Shown here: piece after piece, positions 545 through 22,442 of the stretch | Layout: every line of letters starts with the position of its first letter | Position numbering within the stretch: position 1 is the stretch's first letter | Source of the DNA: Escherichia phage BUCT825 | Sequence record: PV040721.1 | Reading direction: 5' to 3' (one strand) | DNA length: 44,228 bases | Position numbers and translations under genes: made by a program | The notes under the pieces: model-generated | What the model saw: only the letters and a program-made list of their open reading frames with translations | Told to the model about the DNA's origin: nothing | The model's database searches: none

Positions 545-574
545 TTCCCAATTCCTTATATTGTTGGTGTACGG

Positions 575-862: not shown

Positions 863-947
863 CTACGCACCCTTCTCGTTTCGTATGCTCAACCCCACAG
901 CGAGGACAGATTCGGCAGTCTTCTTCGTAGAACCAGTAAATTTTCAT
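849..947 (-). CDS. putative 32-aa Cys-rich (zinc-ribbon-like) peptide
   Basis: Manual translation MKIYWFYEEDCRICPRCGVEHTKREGCVDEYA; start overlaps stop of upstream micro-ORF (ATGA), 3' end overlaps VRR-NUC start. Confidence 0.25.
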   Translation of the reverse strand: MKIYWFYEEDCRICPRCGVEHTKREGCVDEYA

Positions 948-1075
948 TCCAGCACCCACAGATAAATTGCGATGAACATGATCAATATGGCAACCATCAT
1001 GCCGTATTGACCCTCGTGACAGTAGACACCGGCGGCAAATCCAGCCAGTACCGCGATAATCAGTTTACTTGGCAT
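944..1075 (-). CDS. putative 43-aa hydrophobic membrane peptide
   Basis: Manual translation MPSKLIIAVLAGFAAGVYCHEGQYGMMVAILIMFIAIYLWVLE; start overlaps the polymerase stop. Confidence 0.25.
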   Translation of the reverse strand: MPSKLIIAVLAGFAAGVYCHEGQYGMMVAILIMFIAIYLWVLE

Positions 1076-3245
1076 AACGCTTCATCTCCGCACCTTCTGC
1101 TACAAGAGGGAACCCCTCCGCCCATTCAGGTAATTCGCACATCAACCGCTCAAGCTCTGCGACATTGTATTCTGGTAAATCCGGTGTCTCGCAGATAATT
1201 TCATCGTGAACATGAAGCACAATCGGGTAGCCGTTTGCTTCGACGTTCAGCAGCGCATTAGCCAGCAAATCACGGCACAGCGCCTGTGTGCAGTTTTCCA
1301 CGAGTTTACCGGAATATGTGTACTGGAAGCCCCACTGACGGGTTAACTGATTTTCTCCCTGGTACTTTATGCGCACGTTAGTAGACACCTTCCCATCTTC
1401 GTCTGTCTCTTTCGATACGCTCAACCCTACGCCTGGGTAAGACATAACGCGGCCCGACGGCAACGTCATGCGCAGCCACCAACCGGCGACTTTGTTGCTG
1501 TTGTTGTCTGTCTCTACGTTGCGCGAAAACTTAACTCCCCGCGGCCCCGCGGTGAACTCTTTGCCCGGATTGCGGATAGCCGCCATAGCCGCATCTTCAA
1601 TATCACGCCAGAAAGCTACTGTTTCCGGGTGTGACTCACGCCACATACGCTTGATAGCGTCGCAGGTACGCCACACTTTCTTATCAAGAATATAAGATGG
1701 TCGGTCATCTTTTTCACCAGGACGTGGCGGTCGCTTGGCTTCCTGAATACGCGCCCACTCATATCCACGTGCGGTAGCAGCCCAGATGTGGTCGGGGAAA
1801 GTCCCGTCCATTGTTTTTGCCATATCAACAAGGTCAAGGCCGAGGTTTTTGGCGAACTGTACGAATGCACCGACACCACCCGCGTAGCCAAGTCCCAGTT
1901 CGCAGGCCTTACCAATCTGGCGTAAGTCTTTACGTTCTTTCTTAATGTAATCCGACTCCATGCCAAACATCTTGCCTGCGGTTACGCAGTAAATATCCAG
2001 CCCGGCACGGAACGTATCAAGCGCGGTTTCTTCGCCAGCCAGCCACGCCAAACCGCGGCCTTCAACGTTAGAGTAATCGGCGACGACAAACTTATGCCCG
2101 GCTTCAGGTATAATGCAGCTGCGCACCGTCGATGCCGTTAGTTTGGCTACATCGAAACGGCGGTGCGCACGGCCTTTAAGTAACGCAGAAATGCCTTTAT
2201 CCAGTTCGTCGTCGTGATAGTACCCGCGAGCCAGGTTCTGCGGCTGGAAGCCTTTACCCGCAAATCGTAACGTACGTTTAGCTCCACCATACTGGATGCA
2301 ACCGCGACGGCGGTCGTCAGACGAGCGGCCTAACAGCAGCGGGTTATATTTCGTTGACGCAGTGGATGCCGCCCCGAGGCGCATTTCGATAATCGTGCGG
2401 GCGTCGTCCGGTAAATCATCATCCGCCAACAGGTCATTTAGCGTCGACTTCTGCGCGTTGTGGATTCGGTGCGCTGGCGCAAGTTCACGCAGAATAGGAA
2501 GGAAGTCTTTACCAGTAAGCGAGCCGCCGTATTTACGTTGGGCTTCTTCCTGCAACTGCGCTTTGTGTTTCTCTACCGCTTCAATCGCGGCTTCCGCCAA
2601 CGCAACGTCGACCTTAAACCCGCGGTCGTTGATTAACTGGTCCAGTTCCAGTACACGGTCCTCAAACTCCGAGTTACCCCACCGCGGTAGCTTATGGAAC
2701 ACTTCACGCATCGCGGTGATGTCGCTAACTGCGTACTTGATGAACAGCGCCCACTCGTCAGGGTGCGTTTCGGCGGTATAGCGGCGAATTTTGTAGTTCT
2801 TCGGTGTCGGTTTAGAGAAACGCTGAATCAGCGCCTTACCGCGTTTGTCTTTTGCGTTGTCAGCAGATACGCCCAGCACTTCGCACAGCGCATCGAGCGA
2901 ACCCGGCAGCGCGTGACGAAACGCCCAAATCATCGTATCAATGGTGTTGCTTACCGGAATGTCAAAACCCCAGCAGTGTTTCATGACGAGCCTATCGAAC
3001 ATTGAGCCGTTGTGCCACACCATCTTAACGCGGCTGTTCGGCTTAACCAGGCGGCGTAACGCGCGATACAAATCGCCCGGCATATCGCTGCCGTCGGTGC
3101 AATCCCATACCTGTACAGGCTGGTCGTTAAAAGCATATGTACAGATTAGCACTTCGGTAGTTGGATGTTCGGCGTAAGCGTAGGAACCGACTTTCTTCAA
3201 ATCGGCTTCGGAGAATGTTTCAAAGTCTAAGAACAGGTAACTCAT
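1065..3245 (-). CDS. Family A DNA polymerase with N-terminal 3'-5' exonuclease domain (726 aa)
   Basis: Exo I motif LDFETFS; Pol motif A DYSNVEGR, motif B RQIGKACELGLGYAGG, motif C VLHVHDEI. Confidence 0.9.
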   Translation of the reverse strand: MSYLFLDFETFSEADLKKVGSYAYAEHPTTEVLICTYAFNDQPVQVWDCTDGSDMPGDLYRALRRLVKPNSRVKMVWHNGSMFDRLVMKHCWGFDIPVSNTIDTMIWAFRHALPGSLDALCEVLGVSADNAKDKRGKALIQRFSKPTPKNYKIRRYTAETHPDEWALFIKYAVSDITAMREVFHKLPRWGNSEFEDRVLELDQLINDRGFKVDVALAEAAIEAVEKHKAQLQEEAQRKYGGSLTGKDFLPILRELAPAHRIHNAQKSTLNDLLADDDLPDDARTIIEMRLGAASTASTKYNPLLLGRSSDDRRRGCIQYGGAKRTLRFAGKGFQPQNLARGYYHDDELDKGISALLKGRAHRRFDVAKLTASTVRSCIIPEAGHKFVVADYSNVEGRGLAWLAGEETALDTFRAGLDIYCVTAGKMFGMESDYIKKERKDLRQIGKACELGLGYAGGVGAFVQFAKNLGLDLVDMAKTMDGTFPDHIWAATARGYEWARIQEAKRPPRPGEKDDRPSYILDKKVWRTCDAIKRMWRESHPETVAFWRDIEDAAMAAIRNPGKEFTAGPRGVKFSRNVETDNNSNKVAGWWLRMTLPSGRVMSYPGVGLSVSKETDEDGKVSTNVRIKYQGENQLTRQWGFQYTYSGKLVENCTQALCRDLLANALLNVEANGYPIVLHVHDEIICETPDLPEYNVAELERLMCELPEWAEGFPLVAEGAEMKRYAK

Positions 3246-3265
3246 TATTTTCGACCCTTAGTAAA

Positions 3266-3285
3266 AAGGCCCAATGAAGGGCCTT
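3266..3285 (-). terminator. Intrinsic terminator-like hairpin on minus strand between SSB-like gene and polymerase gene
   Basis: Minus strand reads AAGGCCC-TTCATT-GGGCCTT followed by TTTTACT. Confidence 0.45.
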
Positions 3286-3304
3286 AGTTAAATTGATTCA
3301 GATA

Positions 3305-3931
3305 TTAGCGGCGGCGACGTTCGCGGCGCGGTGCTTCATCTTCTTCGTCGTCTTCCAGGTCATTGACGCTCGCAGCGACTTTAGAACCGCCGAACGCTTT
3401 GCCTTCGCCAACGTATTTAATCGCCAGCAGGTTAACGCCGAGGACTTTGTATTTCTGGCTGAACCAGATTTCAACGCTTACGTTAGCTAAGCATCCGCTG
3501 TAAACCTGTTCACCTTCAATCTGTTCACCGTCTACATTGAAGTCCTGTTCTACCTGAGTCTCACCTTTTTTAGAGGTTACAATCAGCGGCTGCTTCTGTG
3601 CCTTCGCTTTGAAGTAGAAGCCTTCCGGGAAGTCTTCAAACGGATTGTCACGCTCGGCAATGTCTTTAATCGCACATTTATCCATGTGCTTACCTTCGCC
3701 GTAGTTGGACTTCATCCACTTCTCGGCGGCGGCTGCACCTAACGCTTCTTCAACTACAGCGTAAACGGTGTCGTAGAGCGCGTCGATTTGCGCGTGGTCG
3801 GACGGCAGGATAATAGTCGCGCTGTACTGACCTTTAGTGATTGAACCATCATCATTTTCACGGTCTTTTTCGCGTTCGAATACGTTAACCCAAGCAGTGT
3901 TTACTTTACGCAGATTTAATTTCAGTCCCAT
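3305..3931 (-). CDS. putative ssDNA-binding protein (DUF2815-like), 208 aa with acidic/arginine-rich tail
   Basis: Position between nuclease and polymerase, own promoter and terminator, acidic C-terminus DDEEDEAPRRERRRR; family assignment from memory. Confidence 0.45.
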   Translation of the reverse strand: MGLKLNLRKVNTAWVNVFEREKDRENDDGSITKGQYSATIILPSDHAQIDALYDTVYAVVEEALGAAAAEKWMKSNYGEGKHMDKCAIKDIAERDNPFEDFPEGFYFKAKAQKQPLIVTSKKGETQVEQDFNVDGEQIEGEQVYSGCLANVSVEIWFSQKYKVLGVNLLAIKYVGEGKAFGGSKVAASVNDLEDDEEDEAPRRERRRR

Positions 3932-3986
3932 TTCTCGATTCCTCAGTTTTCAGTTTACTCCGGGAGCTGCCCGGCCAGTGATTAGA

Positions 3987-4015
3987 ACTATAATAGCTAA
4001 CTATTCAGGTGTCAA
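3987..4015 (-). promoter_or_regulatory. sigma70-like promoter, minus strand (-35 TTGACA 4010-4015, -10 TATAGT 3987-3992)
   Basis: Reverse complement TTGACA-N17-TATAGT; conserved with 578-606 and 7083-7111. Confidence 0.65.
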
Positions 4016-4019
4016 CACT

Positions 4020-5261
4020 TTATTCTAAATCTTCTTCACTAACCTTATTCCACTCAGGACGTTTGTCGTCCGCTGTTGTGACGCATGGCGCCCCCGGCTT
4101 ACGTGTGATGAAGTCTTTCAGTTCTTCTTCTGGTATTACTTTAACCGCTTCGGTCGGCGTCAGGAGCACTTCTTTAGTCAGCTTGTCGCCGTAGAGTTCT
4201 GCTACTTTCTCTGCGTCTTTCCACGCACGATTACCTGGGCGACCTTCCACCAGCTTGTACCCTGGCACTTTCTTACCGGAATGCAACGCAGCAGCCATAG
4301 CTTTTTCGACCTTATCGATGTGCTGGCGCAACAACGGCAACTTCTCATATTCAGCTACGAGTTGCTCCGGCGTAAGTTCCAGCGCAAAGTCGTCCTCCAG
4401 TTCTTCGGCAAGTACAGAATTAACCGTCTTTGTACGCGCTGCGCACTGTTCAGAGAACCGACACCACTGACAACCGTCGACAGACGGCTTAAAGTCCGAC
4501 GCTTTCAGGTTCTTCTTGCCTCGGAAATACGCATCAAGGGCTAACAGTGCGCGTTTCTGTGCGAACTTAGCGAACAGTTCCAGACCTTCAACCGAGATGT
4601 CCCACTCCGACGCGCCCCCGGCGTACGGCTGGAAGATGACTAGGCGCACTACTGATATGTTATAACGTCTCTTGAGTCGGCGGTAAACACCGAGAGCGTA
4701 GAGCATAAGCTGCTTGTTTTCTTTCGCTTCGACATGATGCCGTCCTGTTTTCAGGTCGCCGATAATGAGCATATGCTCGTCAGTGTTCGCCAGTTCCTGA
4801 ACGGCAACAAGGTCAGCGGTTCCGAACGTCTCAACGCCTTCGTAACCCGGATGCAATACCTCAGTAAGATTTACCCGCATTTCCAGCTTGGCGTAAGTCG
4901 CTACGTCGATAATCGCTTTGCAGTAGTCGGTGTACTTGCGCACCTGCTCAATCATGTCAGCCGTAATCAGTACCGCGCCTTTCATCTGGCTAATTAGCGC
5001 CTTAATCTGGCCTTTACCCTCGTCCAGCACGTAAGCGCCGACTTCACGCTCCAACGGCAACGCAGTGCCGCGTATATAGGCGTTGAGATGGACCTCAGCT
5101 ATGGTGTGCATGGCGGTTCCTGATACAGCGGCTTTACCCGACGTGTTAGGGATATCTTTTTCACACGCCAGCGACGCAGCGCATGACAGCCACTTTTTAG
5201 CGCCTGACGGTGACAGTAAGGCGTGTACATCATTATTGCCGCCTCGTTCTTTTAGTTTCAT
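4020..5261 (-). CDS. PD-(D/E)XK / Cas4-like nuclease (DUF2800-like) with C-terminal Cys cluster; start may be 5282
   Basis: ORF 4020-5282; internal ATG at 5261 has a better SD (GGGAG); C-terminal CQWCRFSEQC motif; N-terminal LSPSGAKKWLSCAAS. Confidence 0.6.
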   Translation of the reverse strand: MKLKERGGNNDVHALLSPSGAKKWLSCAASLACEKDIPNTSGKAAVSGTAMHTIAEVHLNAYIRGTALPLEREVGAYVLDEGKGQIKALISQMKGAVLITADMIEQVRKYTDYCKAIIDVATYAKLEMRVNLTEVLHPGYEGVETFGTADLVAVQELANTDEHMLIIGDLKTGRHHVEAKENKQLMLYALGVYRRLKRRYNISVVRLVIFQPYAGGASEWDISVEGLELFAKFAQKRALLALDAYFRGKKNLKASDFKPSVDGCQWCRFSEQCAARTKTVNSVLAEELEDDFALELTPEQLVAEYEKLPLLRQHIDKVEKAMAAALHSGKKVPGYKLVEGRPGNRAWKDAEKVAELYGDKLTKEVLLTPTEAVKVIPEEELKDFITRKPGAPCVTTADDKRPEWNKVSEEDLE

Positions 5262-5412
5262 GCTCTTAAACTCCCACCCCATTTAACTTTACGCGTTTTG
5301 CGCTTGTAGGCGCACGTGTCACCGCTACGGTTGAATATAATCAGCCAAGTCGAGTTGCTTACTCGAAAAGGCTGGTGACATTTAATAAAGAGAAGTCGCG
5401 CTTTACGGTTCG

Positions 5413-5562
5413 TCATTCTGCAATCTCCACAATACGCGCATTAGTGAAACTGCGTGCGAAGCCGAATGTGTAGAAGATGTACTGGGCTTCGTCCAAACGT
5501 GCGTAGCGGCTGTGTTCCTGGTCTTTACCGTCTATTTCTACAATTATCGCGTACCTTGTCAT
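5413..5562 (-). CDS. putative 49-aa protein
   Basis: Manual translation MTRYAIIVEIDGKDQEHSRYARLDEAQYIFYTFGFARSFTNARIVEIAE; ATGA overlap with upstream ORF stop. Confidence 0.3.
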   Translation of the reverse strand: MTRYAIIVEIDGKDQEHSRYARLDEAQYIFYTFGFARSFTNARIVEIAE

Positions 5563-5831
5563 ACCCTGCTCTCCCACTGGTCGATTAAATGTCGCGTCTT
5601 ATGTTCGCAGTGCATAGCCCACCCATACATCGACTCAAAGACATAAAAGTCTGGCTTGGCGAATGTCGTGCGCTTAATCTGTGACACGTGACGGCCTATA
5701 TCTTTAGGCCGCGGTACTTTGCCTAAGTAAGCCATCTCTTCCATCTGGTGCGCTCCGGACGGCGCACGCAACAGCCATAGTGCCTCTGTGTTGTCCCGCC
5801 TGTCGACGGCGCGGTAGAGTTGGTAAATCAT
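5559..5831 (-). CDS. hypothetical protein (90 aa)
   Basis: ORF in tightly packed minus-strand operon. Confidence 0.5.
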   Translation of the reverse strand: MIYQLYRAVDRRDNTEALWLLRAPSGAHQMEEMAYLGKVPRPKDIGRHVSQIKRTTFAKPDFYVFESMYGWAMHCEHKTRHLIDQWESRV

Positions 5832-6031
5832 TTCCTTACCCTCGCAGAATTAATCCACGTGAAAACATCGTCAATAGAAAAATCGCCGTCGAAAACCTTC
5901 TCAACTTTGCTGGCCTTCTTGACCGTCGTAGGGTGTTTGTTGTCTACCGCCTGAAATACGTAAACCAAATCATTTTCAGCGACAACGCTACCAGAAATCA
6001 TAAGACCACTTTTCTTAGCTAAAATAGCCAT
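5828..6031 (-). CDS. hypothetical protein (67 aa)
   Basis: ORF with overlapping start/stop; conserved SD context CTGAGGGTCG upstream. Confidence 0.5.
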   Translation of the reverse strand: MAILAKKSGLMISGSVVAENDLVYVFQAVDNKHPTTVKKASKVEKVFDGDFSIDDVFTWINSARVRK

Positions 6032-6042
6032 AATTCCGACCC

Positions 6043-6258
6043 TCAGTAGTACGGCGCAAATTCACCTTTAACGGCGGGACGAATTGTATGTACCGCCGTT
6101 TTATCGGTTGGGTACATGTCCGCCCAATATTCGCCAGCGGCATAGTCAAGAGTCCCGCGCCACGCACCATTCAAAACAAAGAATTGCTGACAACCCACAT
6201 ATGAGTCACTTATTTCTACAACTATTTGTTCGTTTATTACTTTGTATACGTTACTCAT
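6043..6258 (-). CDS. hypothetical protein (71 aa)
   Basis: ORF; conserved SD context CTGAGGGTCG upstream. Confidence 0.5.
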   Translation of the reverse strand: MSNVYKVINEQIVVEISDSYVGCQQFFVLNGAWRGTLDYAAGEYWADMYPTDKTAVHTIRPAVKGEFAPYY

Positions 6259-6278
6259 TATTACGACCCTCAGTTAAA

Positions 6279-6294
6279 GCGGCCCGAAGGCCGC
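6279..6294 (-). terminator. GC-rich hairpin (GCGGCC-CGAA-GGCCGC), possible weak terminator on minus strand
   Basis: 6-bp GC stem, 4-nt loop, followed on minus strand by TTTAACT. Confidence 0.3.
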
Positions 6295-6301
6295 CAGATA
6301 A

Positions 6302-6802
6302 TTATTCTTCTTCGAAATACTTGTTCTTGATTGCTGTCAAGCGTTCCAGGTATTCAGCCAGGTCTTCGTCTTTAATCGCTGCAATCTTCATTTTCTTACC
6401 AGTGAACTCTTCCAGCAGTTCATCAGAATCGTCGCACGCGGCATCGCTAGGACCTTCATTAATTGCATCGTCGATGGCCTGAATCTGGTCACGCAGAGAC
6501 TTGTAATCGACTTCTTCTTTCTCTTCTTCCGGTTCTGGCGCAGGTTCCTCTACTTTAGCTTTACGCGGCTTGCGTTTTGGCTTCTCTTCCTCCGCCGGTT
6601 TAGTGTCAACTACGTCTTCACCTTCAACCGGGATTTCTTTTGTTGCTTCTTCAGCGCACTCAGCTACCGCTTCTTTGGTGTACGATACCGTCTCTACTTC
6701 CAGCGGCGTGGCAACCTGAACAACTTGTTTCGCACTGTTCGCGGCAATCAGTTCATGTGCAACTACGAAACGTTCCAGCAATACTAAGAATTTCTCTAAC
6801 AT
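6302..6802 (-). CDS. highly acidic hypothetical protein (166 aa)
   Basis: Long E/D-rich stretches (EEEKPKRKPRKAKVEEPAPEPEEEKEE, DDSDELLEEF). Confidence 0.55.
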   Translation of the reverse strand: MLEKFLVLLERFVVAHELIAANSAKQVVQVATPLEVETVSYTKEAVAECAEEATKEIPVEGEDVVDTKPAEEEKPKRKPRKAKVEEPAPEPEEEKEEVDYKSLRDQIQAIDDAINEGPSDAACDDSDELLEEFTGKKMKIAAIKDEDLAEYLERLTAIKNKYFEEE

Positions 6803-6826
6803 TTGTTTCTCTCCTGTTTGTGTAAG

Positions 6827-7054
6827 TTACTCACCGTCGCCTTCAGTAAGGCTATCGTCTATTAGTTCAAATTTACCGTTTGAGTGTTGAATAGCTTCTT
6901 GCCCGCAATGGTCACAGACAACAAGTTTATCGAACCCATCAAACTCATCCCCTACTACGCAAGAAAGTACAAATTTATGTTTTGTGCACACTTCTTGCGG
7001 AGCGCCGAAAATTGCTCGAAAACCTTTAGCTATGGCCCCAGTGATTGTGTTCAT
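6827..7054 (-). CDS. small Cys-rich (zinc-finger-like) protein (75 aa)
   Basis: Cys pairs CTKHKFVLSC and CDHCGQ; SD GAGAGGGG upstream. Confidence 0.5.
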   Translation of the reverse strand: MNTITGAIAKGFRAIFGAPQEVCTKHKFVLSCVVGDEFDGFDKLVVCDHCGQEAIQHSNGKFELIDDSLTEGDGE

Positions 7055-7082
7055 ATCTGCCCCTCTCGTTTGGTATGGGCTA

Positions 7083-7111
7083 ACTATAATAGCGAACTAT
7101 TCACATGTCAA
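7083..7111 (-). promoter_or_regulatory. sigma70-like promoter, minus strand (-35 TTGACA 7106-7111, -10 TATAGT 7083-7088), divergent from the Cro-like gene
   Basis: Reverse complement TTGACATGTGAATAGTTCGCTATTATAGT. Confidence 0.65.
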
Positions 7112-7175
7112 TGGGCTTTTCTAAAATAATTAATATGGTACTATTCACATATCAACTGACTAAGGAGTAACTGAC

Positions 7176-7391
7176 ATGCAACCATCTGAACTAGGCATCC
7201 GTGTAGAGCAACGCCGTAAAGAACTCGGTATCTCCCAGCGCCGTCTGGCTGTTCTGGCCGGCGTTTCCCAGGGCGCGATTAACCAGCTTGCACTCGGGGT
7301 AACTCAGGACGTACGCCCGGCAACGCTGTTTAAACTGGCGGAAGTGCTGGAAGTAGACGCCAAGTGGCTGGCGCTAGGTGAAGGGGCGTAA
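7176..7391 (+). CDS. XRE/Cro-like helix-turn-helix transcriptional regulator (71 aa)
   Basis: HTH signature ISQRRLAVLAGVSQGAINQL; SD TAAGGAG upstream; only plus-strand gene in a minus-strand module. Confidence 0.75.
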   Translation: MQPSELGIRVEQRRKELGISQRRLAVLAGVSQGAINQLALGVTQDVRPATLFKLAEVLEVDAKWLALGEGA

Positions 7392-7406
7392 CGCCCCTTT
7401 CTTTTT
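7382..7406 (+). terminator. Intrinsic terminator whose loop is the Cro-like stop codon
   Basis: AGGGGCG-TAA-CGCCCCT followed by TTCTTTTT. Confidence 0.6.
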
Positions 7407-7408
7407 AC

Positions 7409-9667
7409 CTATTCCAAATCCTCCTCTGTCACCACCAGCATCTCATTTGGTTCGTATAGTGTCTTCGGCCTTAATCTATCACCTATTCTTTCGGGTATCC
7501 GGTATGTGCCGGGGACAACTTCACCGTTAACATCACATCCGAGCATCAACTCCCCGTCTTTCAGCATCTTCTCGAGATGATGGTTGGTGATGGCGTGGTC
7601 CCCCGAGTTCGCCACTATCTGCCGTTGGGTAAAACCTCGTCCGGTGTCGTCGGACTGTTGCAGGTCTTCCAGCGCGGCGAGTATTGATTCCTTACGCCCT
7701 TCATCCTTCCCGCGTTTTACAGCATTATTTACGTTTTCTTTACCTTCTTTAGTTAACCCTTCTTCCCGCTCCTTCTCCTCGTCAGTTTTGAACGGCTCGA
7801 AGCCCCACGGCATCAGCACAAGCGCCTTGTGCGGCTCAGGCAGATCGAGGTTTACGATTGTGCCGTATTCCTCTGTGCTACCGAGGAACTCAACTGCACG
7901 GTATTCTTTCGGAGGCGGGGCTTCACGGAACTGTACCGACTCCAGAACCATGCCAACCGTTTTCTGTTGAGGCCCATGCTTAAATTTCGAGTGGTATACG
8001 TTTATCTGGCGGTCGGTAGCGCGCTCAATTGTCAGCTCCACATCAACACCGGCATACAGCGCCCCGCTACCACGGGCTTTCTTTCCACCCTTAGGCGTAT
8101 GGTGGACGACACCCACAGCGGCTTTAGTTGCGTCGCGTACTTTTTTAAGGATGGCGATAACTTTACCCATGCCAATTGCAGTTGATGAACTGTTCTCGTC
8201 GAACTTGTCAATTGTCAGGGCCAGCGTCTGGTTGAGGGTATCGAACGCGACCATACCAATAGGCTCGTCCCCTGCAGCTTCACGCATCCTGCGGATTAGC
8301 GCGGGGATTTTTTTATCACCATGCGCAGCGAGCACCTCACCCATATCAATGACATGTACGTAATCTTTACCTTCCTCGCCGTATTTAGCCGCGAGCGCGT
8401 CAATACGTGTGCGTGTAGCTGCGCCTCCCTCACCGTCGATATAGAAATGGTGGCAACGCTGGGTATCCGCCCCGGCAAACCGGTATCCGGCGGCGCTCAG
8501 GTACATCATCCCCAGCGTATAGAACGATTTGTACGTGCCGGATTCCCCAACAATATCCCAGATACAATCTGACGGCATGTACCCCTCAACGACGAAATCA
8601 GCCTTTACCGGTTCCGGTAGCTCGTCCTCTTCTGAGTCATCATCGTCTTCCAGGTCGTCGAGGCTGCATGAAACAGATTCACGCGCACCCCATCCGATAG
8701 CCTCGGCGACTTCACTGAACGGCAGCCCGGTCGCATCACACGCGTATTTCCACACCTCTTTCGGCGACATGCCTTCGGTTGCCGTGATGTCGGTGTCGTG
8801 AATCATCGTTACGTTCGGCGCTTCATATCCCTCGCGCGGGAAGCACAGCAGGAAGTCGTCCGGGCGCGGGGTCGGGTCGCTGTAGTTTTCTGCGTGTTCT
8901 GGCGTAGCTGGCATCTTAAGGCCACGCGGCGTCATGATGCCGCCGTACTCGAATGCCAGTGCTTCAAACGCATCTGTAAACGCGGTGCGCAGTTCTTCCG
9001 GTATCTGGTAATCAGATGCGCTGCTGATGTCAACGGCTGGGACGCCTTCCAGTAACTCATCAGGGTCAATCAGGTCGTTGCGGCGCGACCAGATAACAGT
9101 AGAGCCAACTGGCGGCAGGTACATCGGCTGCGACAGAGTGAACCCGCTGCGGTCCGCGCCCATGCCTTTGAAGAAGTGCTCCAGTAATCCATGGCGAACA
9201 CGGATGATGCCGCCACCTTCAACCGGGCGGGCCAGCGGCATGACGACGCGAAAGCGCGGCGACTCGTCGGTATGTGATGCCGTGGTGTAGAGACACATCG
9301 CCTGGCGGCTGCGCTTAACCAGGCGCACCGCTTCCCGATACTCTTCCGGTGTTGCGCTATCGAAGTCAAGATACGCCAGCGACGATTTGCTTACAGACGC
9401 ATCACAGCGATAGAAGAAGCCTTTACGCGCTTGCTTAAAGTCACCGGTTTCCGGGTCTTTTACGGTGCTGTGTGTGGAGTCGCACGCGGCGGTGATATAA
9501 CCGGGTGCGGTCTTCGGGTTAATTCCGTCACGGACAGCATCAAGCGGCTGGATTAAATCTTTCAGGTCGCCCAGCGTTGCCGTGTGTGTGGTTCTGACGT
9601 TTATATCCTTTTTCTCGGCCCGCGCGTTGCGACGAGACCACGAGTAGGATAAAATTACATCGGACAT
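7409..9667 (-). CDS. Primase-helicase (N-terminal primase/polymerase-like region plus RecA-like P-loop ATPase), 752 aa
   Basis: Walker A GESGTYKS, HHTPKGG motif typical of RepA/AAA_25-type helicases; large N-terminal domain; C-terminal winged-helix-like tail. Confidence 0.75.
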   Translation of the reverse strand: MSDVILSYSWSRRNARAEKKDINVRTTHTATLGDLKDLIQPLDAVRDGINPKTAPGYITAACDSTHSTVKDPETGDFKQARKGFFYRCDASVSKSSLAYLDFDSATPEEYREAVRLVKRSRQAMCLYTTASHTDESPRFRVVMPLARPVEGGGIIRVRHGLLEHFFKGMGADRSGFTLSQPMYLPPVGSTVIWSRRNDLIDPDELLEGVPAVDISSASDYQIPEELRTAFTDAFEALAFEYGGIMTPRGLKMPATPEHAENYSDPTPRPDDFLLCFPREGYEAPNVTMIHDTDITATEGMSPKEVWKYACDATGLPFSEVAEAIGWGARESVSCSLDDLEDDDDSEEDELPEPVKADFVVEGYMPSDCIWDIVGESGTYKSFYTLGMMYLSAAGYRFAGADTQRCHHFYIDGEGGAATRTRIDALAAKYGEEGKDYVHVIDMGEVLAAHGDKKIPALIRRMREAAGDEPIGMVAFDTLNQTLALTIDKFDENSSSTAIGMGKVIAILKKVRDATKAAVGVVHHTPKGGKKARGSGALYAGVDVELTIERATDRQINVYHSKFKHGPQQKTVGMVLESVQFREAPPPKEYRAVEFLGSTEEYGTIVNLDLPEPHKALVLMPWGFEPFKTDEEKEREEGLTKEGKENVNNAVKRGKDEGRKESILAALEDLQQSDDTGRGFTQRQIVANSGDHAITNHHLEKMLKDGELMLGCDVNGEVVPGTYRIPERIGDRLRPKTLYEPNEMLVVTEEDLE

Positions 9668-13151: not shown

Positions 13152-13367
13152 ATGGTTCGTAAATATGAAGCGCGAGGGACTGAATTAGGCGGGGACGCAT
13201 TCTACGAAGATTGGGTAGAGGTGGTTCGCTACGAAGATTACAAGGCGCTAAAGACCCATGCCGATGCTATGTGCGAGGCCATGTGTTTGTATGATTTGGG
13301 TGAACGTGTTAGTTTCGAGCCATACATAAATTATACTGAATGGCTGTTGAGTGAGGACGATGTATGA
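13152..13367 (+). CDS. hypothetical protein (71 aa)
   Basis: ATG with SD GGAGGGGG. Confidence 0.5.
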   Translation: MVRKYEARGTELGGDAFYEDWVEVVRYEDYKALKTHADAMCEAMCLYDLGERVSFEPYINYTEWLLSEDDV

Positions 13368-13657
13368 GCCTTGCAACTGACATCCTGAAACGCAGCGGCC
13401 TTGCGCCGCTGTCACCGAGAGCGAACACCAGAATACACAAGCGCCGCCGTAATGCGCTGTACCCGGAGATTCAGGACAGACGCAAAGCTGTCCGCGCCTG
13501 TGGATTCCAGAACGGGAAGGCCGTAAATCTCGGTGAGTTTAAAACACAGGAACGCGCAGCAATCGCTAACCGGTTATTTAATTACTGGAAATCGCTGGGG
13601 TACGATGATATTCCGACGAAACCGCAGAGACGACAATACATCTGGAGACACAAATGA
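13364..13657 (+). CDS. small basic protein with AP2-like DNA-binding signature (97 aa)
   Basis: NGKAVNLGEFKTQERAAIANRLF resembles the AP2/HNH-associated DNA-binding motif. Confidence 0.45.
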   Translation: MSLATDILKRSGLAPLSPRANTRIHKRRRNALYPEIQDRRKAVRACGFQNGKAVNLGEFKTQERAAIANRLFNYWKSLGYDDIPTKPQRRQYIWRHK

Positions 13658-14094
13658 CGACTATCGCGTTCGACGGAAAGACAATGGCCTGTGACACACG
13701 TGTTGTGTGCGGGGATAACTACTACAACACAGATACTAAGATATACGAAAACGATACTTATGTTATCGGGGTAGCGGGTGACGCTGGAGTTGGTACTATG
13801 CTTATCGACTGCCCGTATATCCTCCAGGCCAGACATTATGATTTTGATTTCGAGGCCCTAGTGTATGAGAAAGACGCGGAAAAGGTGTATAAAGTCGCGT
13901 TTTATAAATCATGGGATTGTGCACTTAGTTCAGTTATTCCGGTTGCCGATGCGTACGCTGCCGTTGGGTCCGGTTCCCCTTATGCACTGGCGGCTATGGA
14001 ATGTGGGTATTCGGCGCATGGCGGTGTAGCCGTTGCATCGAAGTTTGACACTAACACCGGCGGCAAGATTATTACCAAACAACTATTAGGATAA
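13654..14094 (+). CDS. HslV/proteasome-beta-like Ntn-hydrolase family protein (146 aa)
   Basis: N-terminus MTTIAFDG (Thr directly after Met, as in HslV MTTIV); GVAGDAG and VGSGSPYALAAM resemble HslV GFAGG and IGSGGPYAQAA; alignment done by eye. Confidence 0.5.
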   Translation: MTTIAFDGKTMACDTRVVCGDNYYNTDTKIYENDTYVIGVAGDAGVGTMLIDCPYILQARHYDFDFEALVYEKDAEKVYKVAFYKSWDCALSSVIPVADAYAAVGSGSPYALAAMECGYSAHGGVAVASKFDTNTGGKIITKQLLG

Positions 14095-14108
14095 TTCCTA
14101 ACCGTGCT

Positions 14109-14148
14109 ATCCTCCAGTTACTGCATACTTAACACGCACCTGGAGGAT
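14109..14148 (+). promoter_or_regulatory. RNA hairpin sequestering the holin Shine-Dalgarno (ATCCTCCAG ... CTGGAGGAT)
   Basis: 9-bp perfect inverted repeat; 3' arm contains the GGAGGA SD sitting 6 nt before the TTG start. Confidence 0.5.
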
Positions 14149-14153
14149 TCATC

Positions 14154-14462
14154 TTGGATAAATTTACTGAAACAGTGACGGGGTGGCTTCTCGCTGCCGC
14201 ACTGGTCGGTGGATTGGTCGGACTAAGACAACATAAAAAGTCTATATCCGGGCCGATTGACGGACTGGTATTTCTCCTCACCGGCTTCGCGTGTGCCATT
14301 TTCGGTGCACCTCTTGCTGCTCAATGGTTCGGTATTACCGGTGAGCGCGAGATAGCTGGCCTCGGATTCATCATTGCCATTCTCTGGATGCCTATCTATT
14401 CCCGCCTTTCTGGCATCGTATCGGGCGGCGATATTGCCCACCCAGGAGGACCGCATGACTGA
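14154..14462 (+). CDS. holin (102 aa, about 3 predicted TM segments), TTG start
   Basis: Hydrophobic segments LLAAALVGGLVGL, LVFLLTGFACAIFGAPLAA, LGFIIAILWMPIY; no in-frame ATG before the first TM; strong SD. Confidence 0.6.
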   Translation: MDKFTETVTGWLLAAALVGGLVGLRQHKKSISGPIDGLVFLLTGFACAIFGAPLAAQWFGITGEREIAGLGFIIAILWMPIYSRLSGIVSGGDIAHPGGPHD

Positions 14463-14727
14463 GCTATTCTGGTTTGTCGTAATGCTGGCAATGGGCGCTT
14501 CGTCCCTGTTCAACGTGTATAATGAACGCGTGGACGACGGGATATTCGGTCGGGTGCTCTATATCCTGTCCGCTATTGTCTGCGCCGCCGGATGTATTCA
14601 CCTGTTACAGGGCGGCATGTCACCTACGCTGCCCGAGACATTAATCACATTAGTTGCGCTGCGCCAGATTCGTCAGGCGTGGCTGTCGTACGGAGGGCAT
14701 AAGCGTGTCTCGAAACATTTCAGATAA
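14456..14727 (+). CDS. second small membrane protein (about 90 aa, 2 TM): holin/antiholin-like
   Basis: ATG at 14456 with SD AGGAGG, overlapping holin stop; TM segments FWFVVMLAMGASSLF and LYILSAIVCAAGCIHLL. Confidence 0.5.
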
Positions 14728-15238
14728 TGGACTTACCGCAGATAAGCTGCGCGAGGTTTTACACTACGACCCCGATACCGGAGTTTTTACATGGAAAGCT
14801 ACACGTGTGCACAATGCTCGGGCGGGAAGTGAGGCTGGCGCCAACCATTGTGCAGGCTATCGCTCCATAGCCTTCGGTGGGAAGCGGTACTTGGCGCATC
14901 GTCTCGCTTGGCTATACATGACAGGGGAATGGCCCAACTCCCTAATAGACCACATAAACGGCGATGGTCGTGATAATAGATTCTGTAATTTACGTGAAGC
15001 CAACAAATCCGAAAACGGATGCAACAAAGGGCCAAGAAAGGACAGCAAATCCGGTATTAAGAACGTTATGTGGCAGAAGCAACAAGGAGGATGGTACGTT
15101 CAATTAAAAATACATAAGATTAAGTATTTTTACGGATACTTTGCGGACCTAGAACTAGCCGCGCTAGTTGCCGAAGAAGCTAGAGAGAAGATACACGGGG
15201 TTTTCGCGAACCATAAATTACGGGAAGGTGCTTTATGA
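14654..15238 (+). CDS. HNH homing endonuclease with AP2-like domain (likely start GTG 14705)
   Basis: HRLAWLYMTGEWPNSLIDHINGDGRDNRFCNLREANKSEN (HNH); conserved N-terminal LTADKLREVLHYDPDTGVFTW; stop overlaps endolysin ATG (ATGA). Confidence 0.8.
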   Translation: MRCARFVRRGCRTEGISVSRNISDNGLTADKLREVLHYDPDTGVFTWKATRVHNARAGSEAGANHCAGYRSIAFGGKRYLAHRLAWLYMTGEWPNSLIDHINGDGRDNRFCNLREANKSENGCNKGPRKDSKSGIKNVMWQKQQGGWYVQLKIHKIKYFYGYFADLELAALVAEEAREKIHGVFANHKLREGAL

Positions 15239-15717
15239 GAAACATTAGCAACAATGGCATCAAATTCACCGCAGCGTTTGAGGGGTTCCGCGGAACTGCG
15301 TATCGTGCTACGCCAAATGAGAAGTACCTGACTATTGGGTACGGTCATTATGGGCCAGACGTAACGCCAGGCAAGACCATCACCCCGGGACAAGGCCTCC
15401 TGTTACTGAATCGTGATATGGCTAAGGCCGTAGCTGCGGTTGACGCAGCAGCGCACCATTCACTGACGCAGGCGCAGTTTGATGCTGTTTGCGACCTGGT
15501 CTATAACGCGGGCGCTGGCGTGATTGCTGCTACTACGGGCACGGGTAAGGCGCTGCGTTCTGGTGATATCACGACGCTGCGGGCTAAGCTGGCGCTGTTC
15601 ATCAACCAGAATGGTAAACCGTTACTTGGTCTGCGTCGCCGTACTGCGGGTCGTCTGGCGTTGTTCGACGGTAAACAGTGGCAGGAGGCGGAGGCTATCG
15701 GGAGGGCTGTTAAATGA
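15235..15717 (+). CDS. endolysin, GH24 (T4/lambda-type lysozyme), 160 aa
   Basis: FEGFRGTAYRATPNEKYLTIGYGH catalytic region resembling T4 lysozyme E...D...TIGIGH. Confidence 0.85.
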   Translation: MRNISNNGIKFTAAFEGFRGTAYRATPNEKYLTIGYGHYGPDVTPGKTITPGQGLLLLNRDMAKAVAAVDAAAHHSLTQAQFDAVCDLVYNAGAGVIAATTGTGKALRSGDITTLRAKLALFINQNGKPLLGLRRRTAGRLALFDGKQWQEAEAIGRAVK

Positions 15718-18039: not shown

Positions 18040-18588
18040 ATGAAGCTGAAACTCAAGCAGCCATCACCAGAGGTGGTGCAAGCTGCACATGAAGAAGCTG
18101 TTAGCGCAAACCGTCGCCGTAAACGACCGCGCGGTAAACAGAGCCTTTATCAATCATCCCGTAATTCCGCCGCGTTGTGGGACCCGGACTATTGTGACGA
18201 ATTGATTCGTTTCTTCGACCGCACGTCGTGGGAGGCTATGCCGACCGGTGCGCACGGAGACTACAAAGCAGTCATTGCGGATAAACCGCCATCACTGGCT
18301 CGCTTCGCCTTACACATCGGTGTCACTATCCCGATTATTAAGCTGTGGCTGCGCGAGATTCCCTCATTTGCAGAAGCCTATGAAACGGCACAGGCGCTGG
18401 AAGAGGCGTATTTCACTGAGAATGGGGCCGCCGGTATCTCTGCTACGTTCGCCGCCGCTAAGCTGGGCCTTAGCAAAGAGAAACCAGTCGAATCCACCGA
18501 AGAAACAGCACCGACCGAGATTATTTTCAGTGTCGCGGAGCCTGTGGGTAAAATCGTAACAACGAATATGGGCGAGGTAGAGGAATGA
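18040..18588 (+). CDS. terminase small subunit (about 182 aa)
   Basis: Immediately upstream of and overlapping TerL; basic N-terminus, HTH-like PSLARFALHIGVTIPIIKLWL, acidic C-terminus; ATG at 18040 with GGGG SD. Confidence 0.6.
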   Translation: MKLKLKQPSPEVVQAAHEEAVSANRRRKRPRGKQSLYQSSRNSAALWDPDYCDELIRFFDRTSWEAMPTGAHGDYKAVIADKPPSLARFALHIGVTIPIIKLWLREIPSFAEAYETAQALEEAYFTENGAAGISATFAAAKLGLSKEKPVESTEETAPTEIIFSVAEPVGKIVTTNMGEVEE

Positions 18589-19835
18589 GTATTCAGCTAT
18601 CCGCACCACAGGCGCTGTTCCTGAATTGCGACAATAAATATAAAGCCTATGTCGGGGGCTTCGGCAGCGGAAAGACATTTGTCGGCTGTCTGGACCTGCT
18701 TACGTTTATGCTCAAGCACCCCGGTACGCGCCTGGGCTACTTCGGCCCGACCTATCCCGCCATCCGTGACATCTTCTACCCAACATTCGAGGAAGCGGCT
18801 AACCTGCTCGGCCTTGATGTGCTGGTTAAATCCGGCGACAAAGAAGTCGTGGTTACTCGCGGTAAGACGGTGCTCGGGACCGTTATCTGCCGCTCTATGG
18901 ATAACCCCGGCTCGATTGTGGGTTTCAAAATCGCCGCAGCATGCGTGGATGAGCTCGATGTATTGAGCCGCGAGAAAGCCGAGCTGGCGTGGAACAAAAT
19001 TGTGGCCCGTATGCGTCTGGTTATCCCGGGTGTAACTAACCACATCTCTGTTACCACGACGCCGGAAGGGTTCAAGTTCGTCTACGCCAAGTTCAAAGAG
19101 AATCCGACGCCAAGTTACTCGATGGTTCAGGCTTCTACACACGAGAACGCGCGATTTCTGCCCCCGGACTACATTAGCTCACTGACCGAGACTTATCCCG
19201 CGCAACTGATTAACGCGTATCTGAACGGTGAGTTCGTCAACCTTACCTCCGGCAGCGTGTACTACGCATACGACCGACGCAAACATCGCAGCAAAGAGAC
19301 AATTCAACCGGGCGACACGCTGTACATCGGCCAGGACTTCAACGTTACGAAGAACGCCAGCGCCGTATATGTGCAGCGTAAAGACGGCTGGCACGCGGTG
19401 GCAGAACTGAAAGGCCTGTTTGATACGCCAGACACCGTGCGTGTAATTACTGAGAAGTGGAAGTCGCAGGACCACCGCATAGTCGTTTACCCGGACGCCA
19501 GCGGCAAGAACCGCAAAACCAACTCGGCATCAATCTCAGATATTGCGTTACTCCAGCAGGCCGGGTTCGATGTTCGCGCTAAATCCGCCAACCCCCCGGT
19601 TAAAGACCGTGTTTTAGCCGTGAATACCGCGCTGGAAAAAGGTAAGCTGTGGGTTAACGACCACTTATGCCCCGAGATAGCGAAGACGCTGGAGCAGCAG
19701 GCATACGACGATAACGGAGAGCCAGCTAAAGACGGCATCATTGACCATATGGCGGATGCTCTCGGCTATCCGGTAGTTTACGAGATGCCGGTGGTTAAAC
19801 CAGTAATCAACATCCCGGTGACTTTCGCACTTTAA
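18585..19835 (+). CDS. terminase large subunit (416 aa)
   Basis: Walker A GGFGSGKT, Walker B AACVDELD, C-terminal nuclease-like region. Confidence 0.85.
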   Translation: MSIQLSAPQALFLNCDNKYKAYVGGFGSGKTFVGCLDLLTFMLKHPGTRLGYFGPTYPAIRDIFYPTFEEAANLLGLDVLVKSGDKEVVVTRGKTVLGTVICRSMDNPGSIVGFKIAAACVDELDVLSREKAELAWNKIVARMRLVIPGVTNHISVTTTPEGFKFVYAKFKENPTPSYSMVQASTHENARFLPPDYISSLTETYPAQLINAYLNGEFVNLTSGSVYYAYDRRKHRSKETIQPGDTLYIGQDFNVTKNASAVYVQRKDGWHAVAELKGLFDTPDTVRVITEKWKSQDHRIVVYPDASGKNRKTNSASISDIALLQQAGFDVRAKSANPPVKDRVLAVNTALEKGKLWVNDHLCPEIAKTLEQQAYDDNGEPAKDGIIDHMADALGYPVVYEMPVVKPVINIPVTFAL

Positions 19836-19847
19836 GAGGATTATTCA

Positions 19848-21329
19848 ATGTTAACTATGAACGGTCAGAATCAGGGTGTTAAGACTAAACACCGGGAATG
19901 GCTGCATCACTTCGATAAATGGCAGAAGGTACGCCACGCGCTGGAAGGCGACCTTATTCGCTACCTGCGCAACGTCGGGAAGAACGAACCCGACCCGACG
20001 TACGCTGCGCAGCGCCAGGAAGAATACGAGAACGGCGCTATCTGCTACAACTTCACCAAGCGCACCCTGGCTGGGATGGTCGGCAGTGTCATGCGCAAAG
20101 ACCCTGAACAGATTATTCCGCCTGAACTGGAGTACCTGTTACGTAACGCGGATGGTTCTGGTGTTGGGCTGTGGCAGCACGCGCAAGACACTTTGATGGA
20201 GATTGACTCAGTGGGTCGAGGTGGGTTGCTGGTGGACGCCCCGGAGACCGCCGCGGCAACGGCGGCAGAGCAGAACGCGGGGTTATTAAACCCGGTCATC
20301 GCTTTCTATACCGCAGAGAACATCATCAACTGGCGACTGACCCGCGTCGGTTCTGTTAACCGTGTGACAATGGTCGTGTTGCGTGAAGTGTGGGAATACT
20401 CAGAACCTGGAGCAGAGTTCGAAACTAAGTTCGGTGAACAGTACCGCGTCCTTGACCTGATTGATGGTCGCTACCGCCAGCGCATTTACCGTTTCGACGC
20501 CGAGGGCGGCGCTCAGGGCGAAGTAATCGAAATCTTCCCGGAACTCGGCGAACAGTTACGCGGCAAAATCCCGTTCACGTTCATTGGTGCAAGCAACAAC
20601 GATGCAACCATTGACGATGCACCTTTGCTGCCGTTGGCTGAGCTTAATATTGGGCATTTCCGCAACAGTGCAGACAATGAGGAGTCCAGCTTCGTCGTAG
20701 GCCAGCCTACTCTGTTCATCGCCCCCGGTGAGAACATGAGCATGGAACAATGGAAAGAAGCCAACCCGCACGGAGTGCGCATGGGGTCTCGTTCAGGCCA
20801 TAACATCGGGTACGGCGGCAACGCGTTTCTGGTTCAGGCAGGGGAGAACAACCTCGCCAAACAGAATATGCTGGATAAAGAGAATCAGGCCATTCAGATT
20901 GGCGCGCAGCTTATCACCCCGACGCAGCAAATCACCGCCGAATCCGCCCGCCTGCAACGCGGCGCCGATACGTCAGTCATGGCAACAATCGCGCGTAACG
21001 TAAGCATGGCGTACACCGATGCATTGCGCTGGGTGGCTGCCATGCTTGGGCTTAGTGATGGTACTGAGATTGAGTTCAAACTTAATATGGAATTCTTCCT
21101 GCAACCGATGACCGCTCCCGAACGAGCGCAGTGGACGGCGGATATTAACGCTGGCCTGCTACCCGCTACTGCTTATTACGCGGCATTGCGCAAGGCCGGT
21201 GTAACTGACTGGACAGACGAAGATATTCGGAACGCTATCGATGATGCGCCGCTGCCGTTGGGTACTGTTACTCAGGTAGAGGGAGAGATTCCGCAGTCGG
21301 CGCAGCAACAAGACGCCACTCAGCCGTAA
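19848..21329 (+). CDS. portal protein (493 aa)
   Basis: Size and position directly after TerL, followed by terminator and head morphogenesis gene. Confidence 0.7.
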   Translation: MLTMNGQNQGVKTKHREWLHHFDKWQKVRHALEGDLIRYLRNVGKNEPDPTYAAQRQEEYENGAICYNFTKRTLAGMVGSVMRKDPEQIIPPELEYLLRNADGSGVGLWQHAQDTLMEIDSVGRGGLLVDAPETAAATAAEQNAGLLNPVIAFYTAENIINWRLTRVGSVNRVTMVVLREVWEYSEPGAEFETKFGEQYRVLDLIDGRYRQRIYRFDAEGGAQGEVIEIFPELGEQLRGKIPFTFIGASNNDATIDDAPLLPLAELNIGHFRNSADNEESSFVVGQPTLFIAPGENMSMEQWKEANPHGVRMGSRSGHNIGYGGNAFLVQAGENNLAKQNMLDKENQAIQIGAQLITPTQQITAESARLQRGADTSVMATIARNVSMAYTDALRWVAAMLGLSDGTEIEFKLNMEFFLQPMTAPERAQWTADINAGLLPATAYYAALRKAGVTDWTDEDIRNAIDDAPLPLGTVTQVEGEIPQSAQQQDATQP

Positions 21330-21365: not shown

Positions 21366-22442
21366 ATGCTATTAACTTTAGCGCCACAGGGTTTATCTAT
21401 GAGCTTACTTACATCTCTAATTAGCCACCAGATATGGCTGCAACGTACTGCATCCGGTGAGGTGAAAGACCTAGCACCGTTCATTCAGGAGATGCGGGAC
21501 GAAATCAAACGGCAGGTGCTGTTATTCGGCGATGATGGCCGCAGCACCGCCCGGCTGAATAAACTGTTACGCGACCTTGAAGAAGCACTGGCTGGACTTA
21601 CAGTTGACTGGCAAACAAAGCTGACAGAAGACCTTAAGGAACTGGCGGCATATGAGGCTGAGTGGAACGTAAAGACACTTACCACCAACGTTAACGCGGA
21701 ATTTGTTACACCTACCGCCGAGCAGGTGTGGGCCGCTGCCGAGTTTCAACCTCTGTCGCTAAGTGACAAGCCCGTTGACTTCACCAAGCTGATGTCAGGC
21801 TGGGGTGAAGCGGAGGTCGCGCGCCTTGTAACTGGCGTTAAGATGGGCTTTGTGCAAGGCCAAACCACACGGCAGATTGTTAAAGAAGTAGTTGGTAAAG
21901 GCGGCCTGGCTGACGTATCAGAGAAACACGCTGCTACAGTAATCCGCACCGCGCTGTCCCACGTGTCCAACGAAGCCCGTAATGAGACGTACCGCCAGAA
22001 CGACGACATTATCGAGAAATATGAGTGGGTGTCTACTCTTGATTCTAGGACCTCAGCCGTTTGCAAGGCCAGAGATGGGATGACGTGGGAAATCGGTAAA
22101 GGGCCGATGCCCCCCGCCCATCCGAACTGCCGGTCGTGCACGGCTCCGGTAATCAGTTCGGAGTTCGACTTCCTGGATAAAGGCGCAAAACGCGCGGCTA
22201 AGGGTGCGGACGGAGGTACTCAGGTAAGCGCAGACACCACTTACTACGAGTTCCTGAAACAACAACCGGCATGGTTTCAGGACCAGGCTCTAGGCCCGGT
22301 GCGGGGTAAGATTTTCCGTAACAGCGGTATATCGCCGGAAGAGTTTCGCGTAATATCTGTAGATGGTTTCGGGAATCCGCTCACGCTTAAGCAGATGGCG
22401 GAACTCGATAAACGTGTTGCTGATTATCTGAAAGGGGAATAA
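21366..22442 (+). CDS. head morphogenesis protein (SPP1 gp7 / Mu F-like)
   Basis: C-terminal LDSRTSAVCKARDGMTWEIGKGPMPPAHPNCRSC signature. Confidence 0.65.
   Translation: MLLTLAPQGLSMSLLTSLISHQIWLQRTASGEVKDLAPFIQEMRDEIKRQVLLFGDDGRSTARLNKLLRDLEEALAGLTVDWQTKLTEDLKELAAYEAEWNVKTLTTNVNAEFVTPTAEQVWAAAEFQPLSLSDKPVDFTKLMSGWGEAEVARLVTGVKMGFVQGQTTRQIVKEVVGKGGLADVSEKHAATVIRTALSHVSNEARNETYRQNDDIIEKYEWVSTLDSRTSAVCKARDGMTWEIGKGPMPPAHPNCRSCTAPVISSEFDFLDKGAKRAAKGADGGTQVSADTTYYEFLKQQPAWFQDQALGPVRGKIFRNSGISPEEFRVISVDGFGNPLTLKQMAELDKRVADYLKGE

Follow-up and report, generated by a model that had tools for sequence, protein, structure and literature searches.

A proteasome-family hydrolase of the PPH family encoded upstream of the lysis genes of Escherichia phage BUCT825

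The sequence under study, referred to here as the window, is a 44,228-nucleotide stretch of Escherichia phage BUCT825 (record PV040721.1). On its plus strand, at 13654..14094, lies an open reading frame (ORF) with an ATG start which, according to the ORF listing, encodes a 146-residue protein beginning MTTIAFDG. The product carries the segment GVAGDAG at residues 39–45 and VGSGSPYALAAM at residues 104–115, and the ORF sits directly upstream of a holin gene (14154..14462). All of these features are present where an earlier, model-made reading of the bare DNA (the original prediction) had placed them. That reading also proposed a proteasome-family N-terminal nucleophile (Ntn) hydrolase with its threonine right after the initiator methionine, and this is borne out by the full catalytic set, by profile searches and by fold: what the ORF specifies is a minimal Ntn hydrolase of the proteasome family, its catalytic set complete and conserved. 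More narrowly, the ORF encodes a member of PPH, the phage branch, about 140 residues long, of the proteasome-beta/HslV/BPH superfamily.

Homology was established from the family profile and the fold, not from the single-sequence Pfam score, which is marginal (20.4 bits against PF00227, below the gathering score of 22.4). Searched singly against the PDB with phmmer, the protein gave weak matches only, around its GSG motif, and BLASTP against E. coli HslV (in an approximate sequence) aligned just 21 residues at the same motif, too weak a match to use. PHROG phrog_1040 (‘peptidase HslV family’) was matched at E = 6e-35. When 1.84 billion cluster representatives were searched exhaustively, 1,534 relatives were recovered at E ≤ 1e-3, nearly all of them 135–155 residues long with the alignment beginning at residue 1, and 317–569 phage records, depending on the query, contain PPH homologues. 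Five of the records counted were from Microbacterium phages, sought as phages of hosts without HslUV; none of the five is among the matches listed. Among 145 full-length distant representatives, 139 start with ‘MT’ and 127 with ‘MTT’. In a 132-member family alignment K29, G105, G107 and A111 are invariant, T2, T3, D14, G42, S106, D132 and G136 are conserved in at least 90%, and 70 of the 132 members match PF00227 at E ≤ 0.01. The profile of this alignment, searched against the PDB, found proteasome beta5i over its full length (1.3e-11), HslV (2.4e-11) and BPH (3e-10).

The beta5i alignment pairs T2, D14, K29, G42, S106, D132 and T135 with proteasome Thr1, Asp17, Lys33, Gly47, Ser129, Asp166 and Ser169, respectively; the codons concerned are all on the plus strand. 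Thr2 (13657..13659), the predicted N-terminal nucleophile once Met1 is removed, is invariant in a set of 24 Guernseyvirinae orthologues, as are Asp14 (13693..13695) and Gly42 (13777..13779), the latter being the oxyanion-hole glycine inside GVAGDAG. Lys29 (13738..13740) is the invariant lysine of the family alignment. Gly105-Ser106-Gly107 (13966..13974) corresponds to proteasome Gly128-Ser129-Gly130 and aligns with the GSG of beta5i, HslV and BPH. Finally, Asp132-x-x-Thr135 (14047..14058), part of the family motif FDxxTGG, aligns with RDSYSGG of beta5i, and both D132 and T135 are invariant in the 24 orthologues.

An AlphaFold2 model made from the family alignment was confident (mean predicted local distance difference test score, pLDDT, 90.7; predicted template modelling score, pTM, 0.86) and contains the alpha-beta-beta-alpha sandwich of proteasome subunits. 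Such a model had been suggested with the original prediction as a check on the Ntn-hydrolase fold, and the proposal was not overturned on that ground. In Foldseek the model matched proteasome beta5, BPH and HslV with a probability of 1.00, the query-normalised template modelling scores being 0.75–0.80. Where HslV and proteasome beta have an H1/H2 helix pair between strands S5 and S6, the model has one helix (residues 44–58), which DSSP divides into helices 44–52 and 54–58, followed by a strand at 66–72; the chain stops three residues past its last strand (139–143), with no C-terminal S12/H5. The stretch comprising this sole helix H1 and the loop that stands in place of H2 (residues 44–65; 13783..13848, plus strand) is the most variable and the least confidently modelled, with sequence entropy highest at residues 46–62. 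The suggestion that a 146-residue protein, shorter than HslV, might be a minimal variant thus proved apt, the protein having neither H2 nor S12/H5 nor a propeptide.

Selection was analysed in the 24 Guernseyvirinae orthologues, 15 of Kagunavirus type and nine from Jerseyvirus. The ratio of non-synonymous to synonymous substitution rates (dN/dS) is about 0.14 in both genera, and the gene is under purifying selection; the catalytic residues are invariant throughout apart from S106T in two sequences. In the H1 region (residues 44–65) the ratio rises to 0.21–0.36, against 0.13 in the core, and since it stays below 1 this indicates relaxed constraint and not diversifying selection. A catalytically dead decoy was considered and rejected, as purifying selection has kept the whole set of catalytic residues. 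By analogy with the processing of E. coli HslV, host methionine aminopeptidase would remove Met1 and expose the threonine nucleophile, and the protein is, to judge from its residues, very probably an active threonine peptidase after that step; a related acyl-transfer activity would be an alternative.

The PPH family was named in 2021 by Fuchs, Alva and Lupas, who described it as proteins of about 140 residues from Caudovirales and prophage regions that have no propeptide, lack H2 and the C-terminal S12/H5, and radiate from the BPH cluster (PMC8665760). The present assignment was made against that published description of the family, whose reference sequences include WP_042125023.1. The window protein agrees with it in length and in the absence of a propeptide (146 residues, MTT start), in the absence of H2 and S12/H5 from the secondary structure of its model, and in its source among the tailed phages and prophages of Proteobacteria, a Kagunavirus-like coliphage with about 87% nucleotide identity to Kagunavirus phages. 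The finding as such is already known: the family has its name, a PHROG exists, and orthologues are annotated in GenBank, those in Kagunavirus as ‘peptidase HslV family protein’, ‘ATP-dependent protease’, ‘protease’ or ‘hypothetical protein’. Its value as a discovery is accordingly small, and the interest lies in the biology of virus-encoded proteasome homologues.

Closer relation to HslV is another matter. The window protein matched neither HslV equivalog model of NCBIfam, TIGR03692 or NF003964, at E ≤ 0.01; its weak NCBIfam matches are to proteasome-beta models only, at 21–23 bits against cutoffs of 192–224. What survives of the HslV likeness first proposed is the homology, the TTIA N-terminus and the GSG motif; identity as HslV does not, given the missed curated models. 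Judged by sequence, the protein does not qualify as an HslV orthologue, standing no nearer to HslV than to proteasome beta or BPH. HslV itself works as a dodecamer of two hexameric rings that HslU and ATP activate. In the HslV of E. coli and H. influenzae, the pocket that receives the C-terminal tail of HslU is formed by Phe54 and Phe57 on H1, Ala79 and Lys80 on H2, and Gln114 (PMC6429459). The model has no H1/H2 pair to form this pocket, and because H2 is missing part of it has no counterpart. Moreover, no gene for HslU or another AAA+ unfoldase flanks the ORF in the window, and neither an HslU-like protein nor any other unfoldase is annotated anywhere in the closely related genome of Bas73. 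BPH, the top structural neighbour of the model, is thought to act without an unfoldase (PMC8665760). The absence of H2, and a nearest structural neighbour with no unfoldase partner, suggest that PPH would work without host HslU, probably as a self-assembled oligomer.

Megablast placed the window among Kagunavirus siphophages (Guernseyvirinae), at about 85–90% nucleotide identity to Bas73, CR01, fEg-Eco19 and others. The gene order PPH-holin-holin-endolysin is common to Kagunavirus and the Salmonella Jerseyviruses, in which PPH is 56–60% identical, and its presence in both genera indicates that a place before the lysis genes is ancestral to Guernseyvirinae. The gene is nevertheless far from universal: of about 115 Kagunavirus-like records matching both the upstream gene and the holin, only 32 cover at least 80% of the stretch that runs from the upstream gene across PPH into the holin, so that about 30% of Kagunavirus records carry PPH and about 70% do not. 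For K1G (the type phage), K1H, K1ind2, Bas71 and Bas74 the match breaks into two pieces and PPH is absent; in K1G a holin 98% identical to that of the window comes 75 nucleotides after the upstream ORF. A three-way alignment of the window, K1G (locus 2132–2809) and Bas73 showed that the indel is exactly the PPH ORF, and that K1G keeps an 18-nucleotide stretch resembling the last PPH codons (14/18 positions identical, by manual count on the alignment). This remnant, together with the position shared by the two genera, points to loss of PPH by deletion. On these genome comparisons the gene is accessory, having apparently stood at the end of an array of small ORFs before the lysis cassette and later been cleanly deleted in about 70% of Kagunavirus records, and the same comparisons rule out that it is essential to Kagunavirus for lysis or for assembling virions. 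The placement before the holin, which had been remarked on as unusual, is real as an adjacency and is not functionally telling, given that K1G-type phages lack the ORF and that it is placed differently elsewhere.

The gene immediately upstream (13364..13657, plus strand) encodes 97 residues, matches phrog_9632, has no assigned function and is retained in relatives without PPH; the PPH ATG shares bases with its stop codon in an ATGA overlap. Downstream, on the plus strand, the holin gene at 14154..14462 (phrog_2359) starts with TTG, and a second holin gene, recognised by its match to phrog_2508, has a probable start at 14455 and ends at 14727. If this second holin starts at the internal ATG, residue 28 of the ORF 14374..14727, the two holin genes overlap by 8 nucleotides (14455–14462) and the second is 273 nucleotides long, equal to the second holin of Bas73 and K1G. 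A lysozyme-family endolysin gene (15235..15717) follows. Between the second holin and the endolysin lies a gene for an HNH homing endonuclease (14654..15238; PF13392, phrog_99), absent from Bas73 and K1G and carried by only four Escherichia phage records. It is 98% identical in nucleotide sequence to the HNH gene found at the matching position downstream of PPH in the Jerseyviruses SETP13, SETP7, AG11 and SB3. Such near-identity, despite flanking genes that are far more diverged (as in the 56–60% protein identity of PPH), suggests a recent cross-genus homing event.

PPH belongs to a rightward gene array that follows a divergent control region and begins near 10.6 kb; it lies about 3 kb into this array and overlaps the preceding ORF. 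Promoter-like sites between 10.5 and 16.5 kb number eight, against 8.0 expected by chance, with none directly upstream of PPH; the early promoter under which the gene had been placed is therefore not supported. PPH would be co-transcribed with the rightward array, which runs into the lysis and then the packaging and head genes. One promoter-like site (TTGACA-16 nt-GATTAT, 10/12 matches) falls within the 3′ end of PPH at 14045–14072, about 80 nucleotides before the holin; relatives without PPH would not have this site, and such sites are regionally no more frequent than chance. Between PPH and the holin is a hairpin (14109..14148, plus strand) with a 9-bp stem, AUCCUCCAG ... CUGGAGGAU, the 3′ arm of which holds the Shine-Dalgarno sequence of the holin (GGAGGA, 14142–14147). 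The RNA fold of 14085–14175 has a free energy of −22.4 kcal/mol (z = −3.34), and none of 200 shuffled sequences was as stable. The hairpin is conserved in K1G and Bas73, and the PPH indel ends at it on the right; the hairpin, which sequesters that Shine-Dalgarno sequence, and the weak TTG start may between them throttle translation of the holin. At the equivalent place in phage Shelanagig, between PPH and the lysis genes, the annotators put a terminator.

The overall reading that we favour, and consider on balance probable, is that the BUCT825 gene encodes an accessory peptidase of the PPH family that is dispensable and independent of HslU. The protein would stand outside the lysis machinery, as a fitness factor that the phage can do without and that acts on some protein of host or phage. 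Several points weigh against this reading. HslU independence is something we infer from structural elements missing from a model, and nearly all hosts seen encode HslU, which leaves room for non-canonical docking. Literature searches found no experimental, biochemical or genetic work on any PPH. Related homologues such as Anbu have the same residues and yet are not known to show detectable proteolysis. The BASEL study, in which PPH is not discussed, reported that its Kagunavirus isolates ‘behave very similarly’ across a panel of defence systems; as these include Bas73, with PPH, and Bas71 and Bas74, without it, such similar behaviour gives a fitness role no phenotype.

A more specific form of the accessory-peptidase reading, put forward only tentatively, is that of a self-sufficient phage ‘mini-proteasome’, in which the loss of H2 would have created a new assembly or docking surface and the enzyme, free of HslU, would act at a late stage on one specific target, either a head or packaging protein from the terminase/portal/phrog_241 module frequently found after PPH, or a host defence or stress protein. 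If true, a virus-encoded proteasome homologue would gain a functional role for the first time. As to what the peptidase does, we rank counter-defence or a role in head formation and packaging first, with hijacking of HslU and a part in lysis less likely.

A counter-defence or host-takeover protease, which only in certain hosts would degrade an immune or stress protein of the cell, would fit the patchy, accessory distribution of the gene, with its repeated loss, and its location in arrays of small accessory ORFs. For an HslV-family accessory protein of Erwinia phage RAY that localises to the phage nucleus, and that is only a putative PPH orthologue, the authors of the RAY study proposed a part in evading defence. 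In Ruegeria phage RpAliso (locus 438–7860) the gene stands amid genes for polynucleotide kinase, RNA ligase, NMN adenylyltransferase/ADP-ribose pyrophosphatase and nicotinamide phosphoribosyltransferase, a region whose gene content resembles that of an RNA-repair and NAD-salvage island, a type associated with counter-defence. We regard this explanation as possible and rather unlikely: no PADLOC or anti-defence family was matched, the BASEL panel gave no reported difference between PPH-positive and PPH-negative Kagunaviruses, and dN/dS bears no sign of an arms race.

The genomic surroundings of PPH in other phages offer a second lead. With 34 sequences sharing MTTIA[FWY]D as queries, 80 IMG/VR loci were retrieved, their neighbouring genes were called seeded on the PPH ORF, and the neighbours were clustered for 58 distant loci, representing 40 groups at 70% PPH identity. 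The sole recurrent neighbour families were a small terminase, two large-terminase families, portal (phrog_145), head morphogenesis (phrog_241) and major head (phrog_283). Genes for terminase, portal or head proteins lie within 6 kb downstream of PPH on the same strand in 13/40 groups and upstream in 4. The same families make up the module that begins 4.3 kb downstream of PPH in the window, with the large terminase at 18585..19835 (49% identical to one cluster), portal at 19848..21329 and the head-morphogenesis gene at 21366..22442. PPH adjoins a terminase gene in Sinorhizobium phiM5 and Caulobacter phage C2; phage Dewey has it as the final gene ahead of terminase, and Erwinia phage Gungnir39 between head-tail adaptor and head-closure genes.

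The association with head and packaging genes is thus real but partial. It may reflect late co-expression with that module or action on it; equally, it may reflect an accessory-gene slot before terminase. HNH endonuclease and other accessory genes commonly occupy that slot, which makes position by itself weak evidence. A late, morphogenesis-linked protease, trimming a head or packaging protein or itself packaged in the capsid, would also agree with the fact that no prohead protease is annotated in Bas73. We nonetheless think it unlikely: Kagunaviruses of the same genus assemble virions without PPH, many PPH contexts are non-structural, and the literature search found no virion proteomics report. 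The recurrent place before terminase, portal and head genes remains a testable lead on the role of PPH.

Those other contexts are varied. In Klebsiella Jedunavirus IME346 the gene occupies a small island between tail genes, and in jumbo phage SPAsTU it lies beside a tRNA array. In Aeromonas and Vibrio myophages it is near phoH, some copies being C-terminally extended or duplicated: Aeromonas phage 4L372D has two adjacent HslV-family genes near phoH (locus 2932–4385; 183 and 294 residues) and Vibrio phage VnaP a 277-residue form, likewise near phoH (locus 3501–4334). These long, C-terminally extended forms may be ‘RPC’ relatives of PPH. Among the relatives of nucleus-forming jumbo phages PPH homologues occur widely, and in many jumbo phages (Erwinia Asesino, Stratton and Caitlin; Caulobacter C1, J4 and BL47; SPN3US) the deposited record opens with the homologue; that of Caulobacter Bertelyvirus falls within the terminal repeat (63–470). 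Erwinia phage RAY gp116, a phage-nucleus-localised protein of the ‘HslVU protease family’, was considered as a possible orthologue of PPH and set aside, RAY not being among the matches listed.

Docking of a phage HslV on the host HslU hexamer, redirecting ATP-dependent proteolysis of the host, had been among the roles first suggested. The TTIA N-terminus and the GSG..YA..AA motif do resemble HslV, 43 of the 132 family members weakly match the HslV model, the Proteobacteria that serve as hosts encode HslU, and some GenBank records bear the label ‘ATP-dependent protease’. Set against this are the failure to match TIGR03692 or NF003964, a similarity to proteasome beta5 and BPH that is equal or greater, and the absence of H2, the helix bearing pocket residues Ala79 and Lys80 (PMC8665760, PMC6429459). 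The apical helix that remains, H1, is the most variable segment of the protein, which would be unexpected of a surface fitting a conserved host partner. Canonical pairing with host HslU is, on the model, unlikely, the absence of H2 arguing against simple hijacking, and we consider this explanation as a whole improbable.

Least probable of all is a part in the lysis programme, by which PPH would process holin, antiholin or endolysin or remove a lysis-delaying host factor: the conserved order PPH-holin-holin-endolysin in Kagunavirus and Jerseyvirus, and the place of PPH about 2.3 kb downstream of the lysis genes as the last gene of the record in Dewey (a Lederbergvirus, P22-like according to BASEL), are outweighed by its precise absence from K1G-type phages with the same cassette and a 98% identical holin, by the roughly 70% of Kagunavirus records without it, by its not adjoining lysis genes in Gungnir39, IME346, RpAliso, 4L372D, VnaP and SPAsTU, by an endolysin cluster near PPH in only 3/40 dereplicated groups, and by the terminator annotated between PPH and the lysis genes in Shelanagig.

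For the accessory peptidase favoured here, Kagunavirus supplies a natural experiment, with near-isogenic phages that have PPH (Bas73) or lack it (Bas71 and Bas74) in the public, phenotyped BASEL collection and with E. coli K-12 derivatives as hosts.

Compared with known systems, the window protein shares most, by sequence profile, with the 20S proteasome beta subunits (beta5, beta5i and archaeal beta), its best match at E = 1.3e-11 with seven catalytic residues aligned; it differs from them in having no propeptide, H2 or H5, in being about 55 residues shorter and in having no alpha subunits. From HslV (ClpQ), the peptidase component of ATP-dependent HslUV, it is separated by its failure in the curated models, by the missing H2 and by the lack of an accompanying hslU, and its D-x-x-T-G-G near the C-terminus is of the proteasome type, aligned to beta5i and lying outside the HslV matches. 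BPH, the beta-proteobacterial proteasome homologue (PDB 5ovs, 5ovt), is a bacterial chromosomal gene product of about 185–200 residues in which H1 and H2 are both present, the pore loop is long and acidic, and the subunits assemble as a heptameric double ring; this set of features does not describe a phage protein of 146 residues with a single helix. With PPH as defined by Fuchs, Alva and Lupas no defining feature differs: the window protein is a typical member, and the catalytic Thr1, Asp17, Lys33 and Gly47 are all kept.

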